Below, piece by piece: positions 12,901 to 15,900 of a stretch of DNA of 64,000 bases. The DNA is taken from assembly GCF_045037415.1 (NCBI RefSeq), contig NZ_CP173438.1; one strand, 5' to 3'. Numbering within the stretch: position 1 is the first letter of the stretch; each line of letters starts with the position of its first letter. The stretch is from Escherichia coli (lineage in GTDB: Bacteria > Pseudomonadota > Gammaproteobacteria > Enterobacterales > Enterobacteriaceae). A program made the position numbers.

Positions 12901-15900
12901 GCATTCCATGTCTGCATTTACCCCGGCAAGTGAAGTCTTGCTGCGTCACAGTGATGATTTCGAACAAAGCCGTATTCTGTTTGCCGGAGACTTACAGGAT
13001 GACCTGCCCGCGCGTTTAGATACCGCGGCCAGCCGTGCTCATACCCAGCAATTCCACCACTGGCAGGTGTTAAACCGCCAGATGGGGGATAACGCCCGTT
13101 TTAGCCTGGTCGCCACGGCGGATGATGTCGCTGATTGCGATACTTTGATTTACTACTGGCCGAAGAATAAACCGGAAGCCCAGTTCCAGTTGATGAATTT
13201 ACTTTCTCTGCTTCCGGTGGGCACGGATATTTTTGTCGTTGGCGAGAACCGCAGCGGCGTGCGCAGCGCCGAGCAGATGCTGGCCGATTATGCGCCGTTG
13301 AATAAGGTAGACAGCGCCCGTCGCTGCGGCCTCTATTTTGGTCGTCTGGAAAAGCAGCCGGTATTTGATGCCAATAAATTCTGGGGCGAATACAGCGTCG
13401 ATGGCTTGACGGTCAAAACGCTGCCGGGCGTGTTTAGCCGCGACGGTCTGGATGTCGGCAGTCAGTTGTTGCTCTCGACGCTAACCCCGCACACGAAAGG
13501 TAAAGTGCTGGATGTCGGCTGCGGCGCAGGCGTTCTTTCCGTTGCTTTTGCGCGCCATTCACCGAAGATCCGCCTCACTCTGTGTGATGTTTCTGCACCA
13601 GCGGTAGAAGCCAGTCGCGCAACACTTGCTGCCAACAGTGTTGAAGGTGAAGTCTTTGCCAGCAACGTCTTTTCCGAGGTGAAAGGTCGTTTTGATATGA
13701 TCATCTCCAACCCGCCGTTCCACGATGGGATGCAAACCAGCCTGGATGCGGCGCAAACGCTGATTCGCGGCGCGGTGCGTCATCTTAATAGCGGCGGCGA
13801 GCTGCGAATTGTAGCGAACGCCTTCCTGCCTTACCCGGACGTGCTGGATGAGACATTTGGTTTCCACGAAGTGATTGCGCAAACCGGGCGCTTCAAGGTG
13901 TATCGCGCCATTATGACCCGCCAGGCGAAGAAAGGTTAAGTATCTGATATCTGTCGCCGCATACCGTGTTGGATGCGGCGTACACGCCTTATCTGACCGA
14001 CAAACGAATTATCCACAATCCGCTGATGGACATTTTTCCAGCAATTACACCTCTGTCGATAATTAACTATTGACGAAAAGCTGAAAACCACTAGAATGCG
14101 CCTCCGTGGTAGCAATTCTTTTTAAGAATTGATGGTATGCGAAGGTGGCGGAATTGGTAGACGCGCTAGCTTCAGGTGTTAGTGTCCTTACGGACGTGGG
14201 GGTTCAAGTCCCCCCCCTCGCACCAAAAACCACGTTGATATTGCTCGCACTGGGCGAAGGTGGCGGAATTGGTAGACGCGCTAGCTTCAGGTGTTAGTGT
14301 TCTTACGGACGTGGGGGTTCAAGTCCCCCCCCTCGCACCAAACGAGGCAATATCAAAAAAAGTAAGATGACTGTGCGAAGGTGGCGGAATTGGTAGACGC
14401 GCTAGCTTCAGGTGTTAGTGTCCTTACGGACGTGGGGGTTCAAGTCCCCCCCCTCGCACCAATTATCTTTACTTCTTTTCTTGTCTCTTCACTGTTTTAT
14501 CACCCCTGATTCAAATTCATTATCATCAGCATGATGCCAGCAATAAGCGCCAGGCACGATGGTAGCAAAACGTAATGCCGTAACTGTTTGTGATACAGCA
14601 TCACCGGCGTCAATACCAATCCCATCAGAATGACAATCCGCCATTGATCCGGCGATAAATCCGCATACATCAGCCCTGTAATCAGCAATCCCGGCAGCAA
14701 CACTCCCCAGCCACTGCCCAGCGTACGTTGCAACATGGTTTCATCTCTTTCATTGATAATGATAACCAATATCATATGATAATTTTTATCATTTGCAAGC
14801 CAGAGAAATCCCTTGCTATCGGATAAACCTATCGCTAGGATTAGCAATCATTATCATTTAGATTACTATCCCGATTATGGCCTATCGTTCCGCACCGCTC
14901 TATGAAGATGTTATCTGGCGAACGCATCTCCAGCCACAGGATGCTGGGCTTGCACAAGCCGTACGTGCGACGATCGCCAAACATCGTGAACATTTGCTCG
15001 AGTTTATCCGCCTGGATGAACCCGCTCCGCTTAACGCCATGACGCTGGCGCAATGGTCATCACCGAATGCGCTAAGTTCTCTACTCGCGGTCTATTCCGA
15101 TCATATCTATCGCAACCAACCAACGATGATCCGCGAGAACAAACCGCTGATCTCACTATGGGCACAATGGTATATCGGCCTGATGGTGCCACCATTAATG
15201 CTGGCGCTACTGACGCAGGAAAAAGCATTAGATGTGTCGCCGGAACATTTCCATGCTGAGTTTCACGAAACCGGCCGTGCCGCCTGTTTCTGGGTCGATG
15301 TGTGTGACGATAAAAACGCAACACCACATTCGCCGCAGCAGCGAATGGAAACGTTAATCAGCCAGGCGCTGGTTCCGGTTGTGCAGGCACTAGAAGCGAC
15401 CGGAGAGATCAACGGCAAACTTATCTGGAGTAATACCGGTTATTTGATCAACTGGTATCTCACTGAGATGAAGCAACTGCTCGGCGAGGCGACGGTTGAA
15501 TCGCTGCGCCATGCCATCTTTTTTGAGAAAACGCTCACGAACGGTGAAGATAATCCACTCTGGCGTACCGTGGTACTGCGCGACGGCCTGCTGGTGCGCC
15601 GCACTTGCTGCCAGCGTTATCGCTTACCGGATGTGCAGCAATGTGGCGATTGTACGCTGAAATGAAAGCACTGCCGGGGAAGTAAACCCGGCATCATGCG
15701 GATTAATAGGGATGCAACACATTACTTGCTTCGCAATGCCGCATACATAACAGAATATCTGCGGCCTCCAACAATCCTGCATCAGAACTGACGCCCAGTT
15801 TCGACATCACATTAAATTTATGCGCGCGGATCGTTTTGATATTGCGTTTAAGCTGCTCGGCAATTTGTGTCATTGAGTAGCCACGCGACATAAAGCGCAA

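Follow-up and report, generated by a model that had tools for sequence, protein, structure and literature searches.

It has been known since the 1980s that Fur controls fhuF, the gene that serves as reporter of the Fur titration assay. Among the closest described systems are other divergent spacers of E. coli such as fepA-fes, fepD-entS and fepB-entC, short regions in which overlapping Fur arrays advance in 6-bp steps and repress the genes on both sides. At fhuF itself, Chen et al. 2007 (PMC2189734) described two protected regions by DNase I footprinting and gel shift. The footprints have thus been on record since 2007, and ChIP work of about 2014-2023 confirmed the neighboring gene yjjZ as a core Fur target.

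Here we examine this locus in a stretch of 64,000 nucleotides (64 kb) of Escherichia coli DNA (contig NZ_CP173438.1), referred to in full as the window. Positions 14737-14876 are exactly the spacer between the divergent genes yjjZ and fhuF, whose start codons bound it at 14736 (minus strand) and 14877 (plus strand), and its G+C content is 32%, compared with 51% for the whole window. The yjjZ product matches Pfam PF07256 (E = 1e-36), and the fhuF product matches PF06276 and PF11575. An earlier sequence-only reading had proposed that multiple Fur-box-like repeats in this divergent region place both genes under iron/Fur control. Fur control of yjjZ and fhuF from the spacer is correct but already known. 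The best explanation of the data, to which we assign a probability of roughly 93%, is that the spacer holds two Fur operators serving two back-to-back sigma-70 promoters.

14500-14736, minus strand: yjjZ coding sequence, 78 aa, small hydrophobic protein with DUF1435 (open reading frame and RefSeq annotation)
14737-14876, unstranded: yjjZ-fhuF intergenic region, 140 bp, 32% G+C
14877-15665, plus strand: fhuF coding sequence, encoding a ferric-siderophore reductase of 262 aa with a 2Fe-2S motif at its C terminus

In the record of strain AR_0086, the first ~11.1 kb are a prophage that is absent from the window, which has the usual deo-yjjI-prfC order at that position.

Methods

The Fur PWM was built from 11 independent K-12 Fur sites with published centre coordinates, none of them from the yjjZ-fhuF locus. 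The footprinted fepA-fes, fepB, fur, tonB and fecA regions were left out of the training and kept as untouched controls, because sites must not be picked with the model under construction. In calibration, the training sites scored 17.6-27.4 bits when left out one at a time, and the untrained footprinted control regions scored 9.5-20.3 bits. The K-12 footprints were mapped onto the window by anchoring on both start codons, which are 141 bp apart in K-12 and in the window. The comparison set comprised 12 related loci from four genera, namely five Escherichia lineages and seven loci of other genera. In the Gao 2023 supplement, the MG1655 sheet lists fhuF beside peak P135, ~10 kb off, which we took as a row misalignment; for the ChIP-exo data we used peak P137 of MG1655 and the W3110 sheet instead.

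Fur sites in the spacer

The four best PWM matches in the 64-kb window all lie in the spacer, at 22.0 bits (centre 14784), 21.3 bits (14767), 18.5 bits (14761) and 16.0 bits (14849), and a further site there scores 7.4 bits (14855); the best score in the rest of the window is 12.0 bits. The spacer therefore carries the Fur motif, a 19-bp box with a 7-1-7 core, at the score level of proven sites. The PWM sets site centres in pairs 6 bp apart (14761/14767, 14784/14790 and 14849/14855), which is the offset rule for overlapping Fur sites described by Chen et al. 2007 (PMC2189734). When the 19-bp Fur consensus was searched with at most three mismatches, a single place was found in 64 kb, 14755-14773, and none in 100 shuffles. 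This place is GATAATGATAACCAATATC, with two mismatches, the box that the sequence-only reading had quoted; it is a genuine Fur match, although the strongest single site is centred elsewhere, at 14784. The same reading had counted at least two further hexamer arrays, and these were found as GATAATTTTTATCATT (14778-14793) and CAATCATTATCATT (14845-14858). Its statement that the arrays fill the 140-bp region is roughly fair, as PWM sites cover 67 of the 140 bp and published footprints ~100 of them.

Since GATAAT is near the -10 consensus and the spacer is only 32% G+C, the arrays might be a chance resemblance to Fur sites in AT-rich promoter or nucleoid-protein DNA. The scan speaks against this. 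Four sites of at least 16 bits occurred in none of 20,000 dinucleotide-preserving shuffles of the spacer, and a maximum of 22 bits was reached in 0.035% of them; nor did any AT-rich tile of the window other than the spacer exceed 12 bits (n = 108). The sequence-only reading had itself offered a PWM scan as its check, with sub-threshold scores as the outcome against it, and 16.0-22.0 bits were obtained instead. Together with the published footprints, ChIP-exo and delta-fur expression, these scores rule out chance resemblance, whose remaining probability we regard as negligible.

Two clusters over two promoters

The sites fall into two clusters, each lying over a core promoter.

14752-14776, unstranded: Fur sites Ia, two overlapping 19-bp sites with centres 14761 and 14767, including GATAATGATAACCAATATC
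14775-14793, unstranded: Fur site Ib, TATGATAATTTTTATCATT, centre 14784, 22.0 bits, the strongest site of the window
14763-14798, minus strand: yjjZ sigma-70 core promoter (promoter scan and published start site)
14840-14864, unstranded: Fur cluster II, two overlapping sites 6 bp apart, centres 14849 (16.0 bits) and 14855 (7.4 bits)
14813-14847, plus strand: fhuF core promoter (hexamers read from sequence, starts from the literature)

The yjjZ promoter consists of a -35 TTGCAA (14798-14793), a 16-nt spacer and a -10 TATGAT (14776-14771), with the start at 14763, and the same hexamers are listed in PMC3946193. Its start, 4,605,777 in NC_000913.3, was seen in vitro and in delta-fur and was absent in the wild type (PMC10301672). 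With this literature start, cluster I extends from -35 to +12 of yjjZ, sites Ia overlying the -10 and the transcription start and site Ib lying between the -35 and the -10 and overlapping both. PMC10301672 also cites EcoCyc/RegulonDB for Fur sites at yjjZ.

On the other side, the fhuF hexamers were read as a -35 TTGCTA (14813-14818), a 17-nt spacer and a -10 TAGGAT (14836-14841). The starts at 14846/14847 correspond to K-12 4603717/4603716 and are taken second-hand from Chen 2007 (PMC2189734). Cluster II covers -7 to +18 of fhuF and so takes in the last bases of the -10, the start site and the first part of the leader. The G at 14838 gives the window a TAGGAT where K-12 has TATGAT, and TAGGAT is the common E. 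coli allele of this -10. Across genera, the CTTGC of the -35 does not vary, and ATTATCATTTAGATT of cluster II is the same in 13 sequences from four genera.

A review (PMC8115020) notes that oxidised OxyR may repress fhuF, as suggested by transcriptomic data. The best match over the fhuF promoter to the OxyR consensus ATAGnTnnnAnCTAT-N7-ATAGnTnnnAnCTAT, at 14818-14854, agrees at 13 of 20 specified positions; matches of at least 13/20 occur at 15 places in the window, including this one and a second place in the spacer. The match is no better than those elsewhere in the window, and we claim no position for an OxyR site.

Cluster I could also repress a second, upstream fhuF promoter on the plus strand, in which case fhuF would have two Fur-controlled promoters.

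-35 TTGATA at 14753-14758, with -10 TATGAT at 14775-14780 or GATAAT at 14778-14783, plus strand: candidate upstream fhuF promoter

The pair TTGATA-16-TATGAT scores 10/12 in the promoter scan. PMC3946193 gives TTGATA-19-GATAAT, within an RNA-polymerase SELEX peak, as its predicted fhuF promoter, and the strand that carries it runs on into a GGDEF gene in other genera. However, the only mapped fhuF starts are 14846/14847, Fur boxes are compositionally like -10 hexamers, and the -35 lacks conservation, being CTGATA, TCGATA or ACGATA in other genera. Conservation of the upstream -10 is uninformative, because this hexamer shares the 10-bp palindrome ATCATATGAT with the yjjZ -10. We thus consider a second fhuF promoter distinctly improbable.

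Under the preferred reading of two operators for two promoters, repression would proceed as follows. When iron is sufficient, metal-loaded Fur dimers would occupy the overlapping sites. The three strong sites of cluster I (14752-14793), lying over the yjjZ -35, -10 and start, would exclude RNA polymerase, and the one good and one weak site of cluster II (14840-14864), over the end of the fhuF -10 and the start, would block initiation. When iron is scarce, Fur would leave the DNA and both genes would be transcribed.

Published binding and expression data

The iron/Fur control of both genes put forward from sequence is borne out in K-12 by published footprints, gel shift, ChIP-exo and delta-fur expression. 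The regions protected in Chen et al. 2007 (PMC2189734) map onto the two clusters.

14748-14800, unstranded: footprint 'fhuF1', published DNase I, high affinity (K-12 4603763-4603815)
14830-14883, unstranded: footprint 'fhuF2', published DNase I, low affinity (K-12 4603680-4603733)

Fur ChIP-exo, which had been suggested as a second check, places a peak of iron-replete MG1655 at 14769-14784 of the window, and in W3110 one and the same peak is attributed to fhuF and yjjZ (PMC10164565 supplement). Across nine E. coli strains, the log2 fold change of delta-fur versus wild type is 5.5-11.3 for yjjZ and 2.0-8.5 for fhuF, and both genes belong to the 36-gene Fur core regulon of these strains, with yjjZ first (PMC10164565). 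CFT073 likewise has a single ChIP peak for both genes, and derepression there is ~208-fold for yjjZ and ~90-fold for fhuF. The gene with the larger derepression, yjjZ, is also the one bearing the stronger operator. In Salmonella, iron represses yjjZ, which is cited there among the members of the Fur regulon, and fhuF rises 8.5-fold in delta-fur. Taken together, published experiments and the present scan show that Fur binds cluster I strongly and cluster II weakly, and that yjjZ and fhuF, whose mapped starts the sites overlap, are strongly derepressed without Fur.

Comparison with other genera

All 12 related loci have cluster II, and all 11 that include the yjjZ side have cluster I; every Fur site is conserved in the five Escherichia lineages. 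In the other genera, cluster II lies 28-37 bp from the fhuF ATG (seven loci) and cluster I 25-48 bp from the yjjZ ATG (the six loci that reach yjjZ). Citrobacter, Salmonella and Klebsiella have a diguanylate-cyclase gene between yjjZ and fhuF; each of the two has its own cluster next to it, and ~1.4 kb separate the clusters. The cyclase gene encodes 348-354 aa (Pfam GGDEF) and is absent in Escherichia. Its Salmonella locus tag is presumably STM4551; among the papers searched, none names fhuF or yjjZ together with STM4551, which, with a presumed tag, says little about the newness of the fusion reading discussed below. Alignments with the other genera place a junction in the Escherichia spacer, where the other genera have ~1.3 kb extra, the GGDEF gene included.

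14800-14802, unstranded, approximate: homology junction, with the yjjZ side at 14737-14799 and the fhuF side at about 14803-14876

Judged from these alignments, the present layout of yjjZ and fhuF appears to go back to the loss of an intervening gene and not to an ancestral shared operator.

The same comparison bears on whether both clusters act jointly on fhuF, in which case Fur would nucleate at the strong upstream cluster and then spread or bridge to the weak one at the fhuF start, and repression of yjjZ would be a by-product of the shared spacer. Chen 2007 (PMC2189734) calls both footprints fhuF promoter elements, and notes that footprints extend at higher Fur concentrations; moreover, the spacing of the clusters is ~65 bp, and a single ChIP peak is assigned to both genes. 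However, with cluster I ~1.4 kb away from fhuF in Citrobacter, Salmonella and Klebsiella, cluster II nevertheless shows full conservation there, and Fur still represses fhuF 8.5-fold in Salmonella. Furthermore, cluster I lies exactly over the -35, -10 and +1 of yjjZ, which is the more strongly repressed gene. We hold joint action to be doubtful, if a better candidate than an upstream fhuF promoter.

We favor instead one cluster per promoter, because of the site positions and because each gene keeps a cluster of its own in Citrobacter, Salmonella and Klebsiella, at a distance of ~1.4 kb from the other cluster. Each cluster probably serves mainly the promoter beneath it. By the same token, the 'high-affinity fhuF1 site' may really be the yjjZ operator, and fhuF may depend mostly on the weak cluster II. 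None of the evidence speaks against Fur control as such, but three points run counter to such a split. Chen et al. 2007 (PMC2189734) take both clusters as parts of the fhuF promoter; the Escherichia clusters are only ~65 bp apart, so that cooperative spreading of Fur is possible; and the plus-strand promoter-like element in cluster I, if active, would allow direct action on fhuF.

Discussion

We speculate, at odds that we put only a little above even, that an ancestor of Escherichia lost the GGDEF gene and thereby fused two independent minimal Fur-controlled promoters near 14800-14802, and that the 'fhuF box' is accordingly the yjjZ operator, with fhuF essentially under cluster II alone. If true, this would explain why fhuF is so easily titrated, and hence its use as reporter in the Fur titration assay, and also why no core-regulon gene is repressed more tightly than yjjZ. 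The comparative result suggests which cluster belongs to which gene, and this is relevant wherever the 'fhuF Fur box' is employed as a titration standard or reporter. The locus would also illustrate neatly how deletion of a gene can bring about a divergent pair of co-regulated promoters. The gene yjjZ, whose product has no known function, is among the most strongly Fur-repressed genes. As a positive control, the case has value in that a reading of raw sequence without tools picked one of the strongest Fur operators of the genome.

The fhuF/yjjZ operators of K-12 are the same locus, where the spacer differs from that of the window at four aligned positions, none within a Fur site, so that the Fur sites are base-for-base identical. 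Their PWM scores (22.0, 21.3, 18.5, 16.0 and 7.4 bits) closely track those of Chen 2007 (PMC2189734; 22.3, 20.8, 16.1, 14.6 and 9.3 bits), in which the strongest site, at old K-12 coordinate 4603779, is the centre of site Ib, and the 14.6 and 9.3 bits are those of cluster II. Salmonella, Citrobacter and Klebsiella have orthologous yjjZ and fhuF with Fur clusters at the same distances from the start codons, and in Salmonella, as in E. coli, both genes are iron/Fur regulated; site Ib, in contrast, scores 8.8-15.2 bits in these three genera and 22.0 bits in Escherichia. The footprinted spacers of the fepA-fes, fepD-entS and fepB-entC type reach 16.6-20.3 bits with the same PWM. Compared with them, the yjjZ-fhuF spacer differs in having back-to-back promoters with separate Fur clusters of unequal strength.

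Results

The 140 bp from 14737 to 14876 are exactly the divergent spacer between the start codons of yjjZ and fhuF, with a G+C content of 32%, against 51% for the window. Of 5,426 complete E. coli genomes, a single one lacks a match to the surrounding stretch (14400-15000), and several are 100% identical to it. Four positions set the spacer apart from that of K-12 MG1655 (14738, 14805, 14823 and 14838); none of them is inside a Fur-like site, and the K-12 literature is therefore directly applicable.

Genes of the locus, in order
rsmC, + strand, before the tRNA-Leu trio
14139-14461, + strand, three tandem tRNA-Leu(CAG) genes (leuQ, leuP, leuV), 87 nt each
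14500-14736, - strand, yjjZ; YjjZ is DUF1435 (Pfam)
14877-15665, + strand, fhuF; ferric reductase family with a 2Fe-2S C-terminal motif (Pfam)
bglJ and yjjQ, - strand, after fhuF

Directly downstream of yjjZ, the tRNA-Leu(CAG) trio occupies the other strand; the short, nearly identical ORFs that its repeats create in the ORF list are spurious. The reading frames of bglJ and yjjQ overlap by 43 bp (- strand, 16338-16380), as in the K-12 annotation. Strain AR_0086 (NZ_CP032201.1) is identical to the window from ~11.1 kb onward, but a prophage with an integrase and Rha and PerC-type regulators adjoins its yjjG, where the window has the usual deo-yjjI-prfC (1-11300); in some strains, this yjjG-adjacent site serves as an insertion point for prophages.

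The sequence-only reading had proposed Fur-box-like repeats in the spacer, and consensus search, PWM scan and shuffles all confirm them. GATAATGATAACCAATATC (14755-14773) departs from the classical 19-bp Fur box at two positions; nowhere else in the 64 kb is there a stretch with three mismatches or fewer (0 in 100 shuffles). The reading's "at least two" further arrays are likewise present, as GATAATTTTTATCATT (14778-14793) and CAATCATTATCATT (14845-14858). The PWM was trained on 11 K-12 Fur sites at published centres (entC, fecI, gpmA, ryhB, sodA, sufA, ydiE, ydhY, cirA, bfd and mntH; Table 4 of Chen et al. 2007), none from the yjjZ-fhuF locus, with coordinates converted via the distance from the start codon stated for each gene. 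These sites fell into register without adjustment (consensus AATGATAATCATTATCATT, information 19.6 bits).

PWM scores
Fur site, centre 14784: 22.0 bits
Fur site, centre 14767: 21.3 bits
Fur site, centre 14761: 18.5 bits
Fur site, centre 14849: 16.0 bits
Fur site, centre 14855: 7.4 bits
Top match in the window outside the spacer: 12.0 bits
Training sites, leave-one-out: 17.6-27.4 bits
Footprinted control regions kept out of training: 9.5-20.3 bits

The first four sites are the four top matches of the entire window (16.0-22.0 bits versus at most 12.0 elsewhere), and site centres are offset by 6 bp at 14761/14767, 14784/14790 and 14849/14855. When the spacer was shuffled 20,000 times with its dinucleotides preserved, four sites at or above 16 bits never arose together, and the best site attained 22 bits in only 0.035% of the shuffles; the window's other AT-rich tiles contain nothing near the spacer scores. 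Chance AT-richness is excluded as the source by these two comparisons, and the array is genuine and far above chance.

Elsewhere, a Fur-like site in the last yjjZ codons, by the tRNA-Leu cluster (ATTCAAATTCATTATCATC, 14509-14527), ties with the best outside the spacer at 12.0 bits and shares bases with a weak promoter-like match on the + strand. A weak Fur-like pair, 140 bp apart (56556-56714; 12.0 bits at 56705, 10.7 bits at 56565), lies in an AT-rich region upstream of iraD (idlP/ytiD); its scores are under those of most proven sites, and it probably reflects base composition.

In this spacer Chen et al. (2007, PMC2189734) had predicted two clusters of Fur sites (16.1, 20.8 and 22.3 bits; 14.6 and 9.3 bits) and then verified each one with DNase I footprints and gel shift. 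We mapped their coordinates via the two start codons, 141 bp apart in K-12 and window alike; our independent PWM places the sites at the same positions, with scores close in trend.

Promoter and operator features
14798-14793, - strand, yjjZ -35 TTGCAA, 16 nt from the -10
14776-14771, - strand, yjjZ -10 TATGAT
14763, - strand, yjjZ start
14775-14793, Fur site Ib of cluster I, occupying the yjjZ -35/-10 gap and overlapping both hexamers
14752-14776, Fur sites Ia of cluster I, over the yjjZ -10 and start
14748-14800, high-affinity footprint fhuF1 (mapped from PMC2189734)
14784, strongest site of Chen et al. (mapped from PMC2189734)
14813-14818, + strand, fhuF -35 TTGCTA, 17 nt from the -10
14836-14841, + strand, fhuF -10 TAGGAT
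14846/14847, + strand, fhuF transcription starts (quoted in PMC2189734, mapped to the window)
14840-14864, Fur cluster II, over the end of the fhuF -10, the start and the early leader
14830-14883, low-affinity footprint fhuF2 (mapped from PMC2189734)

The entire yjjZ core promoter lies within the high-affinity footprint, and Fur dimers in 6-bp-offset arrays act by classical promoter occlusion. The yjjZ start (4,605,777 in NC_000913.3) was seen in delta-fur and in vitro and is silent in wild type (PMC10301672). In MG1655 a ChIP-exo peak at 4603779-4603794, window 14769-14784, is bound when iron-replete, and in W3110 a single peak is assigned to both genes (PMC10164565). Both are among the 36 core Fur-regulon genes of nine E. 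coli strains, with yjjZ first in the list, and their delta-fur log2 fold changes are 5.5-11.3 (yjjZ) and 2.0-8.5 (fhuF) across the nine (PMC10164565). Uropathogenic CFT073 also has one ChIP peak for both, with derepression of ~208-fold (yjjZ) and ~90-fold (fhuF). The stronger operator is on the gene with the stronger repression, yjjZ. Fur control of both genes, as the sequence-only reading had suggested, is correct by these footprints, ChIP-exo and delta-fur data; it is already established, and the biology is known.

At 14838 the window has G (TAGGAT) where K-12 has T (TATGAT), nearer consensus. The exact 65-mer 14826-14890 occurs in its window version in 3,674 of the 5,426 complete genomes and in its K-12 version in 368; among the matches listed, the latter are ER1709, MG1655 and C600, all K-12-type laboratory strains. 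The K-12 fhuF -10 is a minority allele in E. coli. Because TATGAT is in the minority and TAGGAT or TAGTAT is also found in Citrobacter and other Escherichia, K-12 may carry a derived, stronger fhuF -10, and hence so may the background of the classical Fur titration assay (FURTA), whose reporter is fhuF::lacZ (PMC2189734).

A FhuF scan with one genome per species gave 12 loci. Five Escherichia lineages (two further Escherichia species, one E. coli genome, E. whittamii and E. albertii) have the same spacer length, 140 bp, and keep all four strong sites. The yjjZ-fhuF gap is ~1.42 kb in four Citrobacter loci, Salmonella enterica subsp. arizonae and Klebsiella grimontii; a second Klebsiella contig stops within the interval. 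All seven non-Escherichia loci (L018-L023 and L025) have an extra gene on the fhuF strand between the two (e.g. 316-1380 in L021), partial or frameshifted in two, for a membrane-anchored protein of 348-354 aa with a GGDEF diguanylate-cyclase domain (PF00990, E = 4e-47). The gene may be an orthologue of Salmonella STM4551. It is absent from the entire window and all Escherichia loci of the scan. Cluster I lies by yjjZ in 6/6 non-Escherichia loci reaching that gene (centres 25, 31 and 48 bp from the ATG), cluster II by fhuF in 7/7 (28-37 bp from the ATG), and ATTATCATTTAGATT is unchanged across all 13 sequences. Homology to the other genera extends over 14737-14799 on the yjjZ side and ~14803-14876 on the fhuF side; the shared parts are the two core promoters and their operators and nothing more.

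Discussion

Klebsiella is an outgroup to Escherichia, Salmonella and Citrobacter, and between these genera the GGDEF protein diverges about as much as FhuF. On the simplest history, the intervening stretch would have been deleted on the Escherichia stem, which brought together two Fur-controlled promoters that had been independent. The GGDEF gene is divergent from yjjZ, with which it shares the spacer carrying cluster I, and might therefore itself be iron-regulated.

Such a fusion favours the view that "fhuF1" is the operator of yjjZ and that cluster II is the one belonging to fhuF. Cluster II alone accompanies Salmonella fhuF, which is still Fur-repressed there (up 8.5-fold in delta-fur), the locus compared being that of subsp. 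arizonae and the expression data those of serovar Typhimurium; iron also represses yjjZ in Salmonella, where the gene is cited as belonging to the Fur regulon. Alternatively, both clusters could act together on E. coli fhuF, for instance through spreading of Fur. Cluster I also holds a putative + strand promoter, TTGATA (14753-14758) with a TATGAT -10 (14753-14783 overall), which matches at 10/12 in a promoter scan and is given as the predicted fhuF promoter by Shimada et al. (PMC3946193); however, the fhuF starts mapped are those at cluster II, and none is mapped for this element. ATCATATGAT (14771-14780) is a perfect 10-bp palindrome that places a TATGAT -10 hexamer on both strands. An OxyR site at fhuF is expected from the literature (PMC8115020); a crude consensus scan gave no match above background.

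What we add to the known regulation is the proposed assignment of one cluster to each promoter, a compact spacer that may stem from loss of the GGDEF gene, and the minority status of the K-12 fhuF -10. The arrangement in Salmonella, Citrobacter and Klebsiella is like that of E. coli in that one cluster lies by each gene, and unlike it in that the GGDEF gene stands between them.
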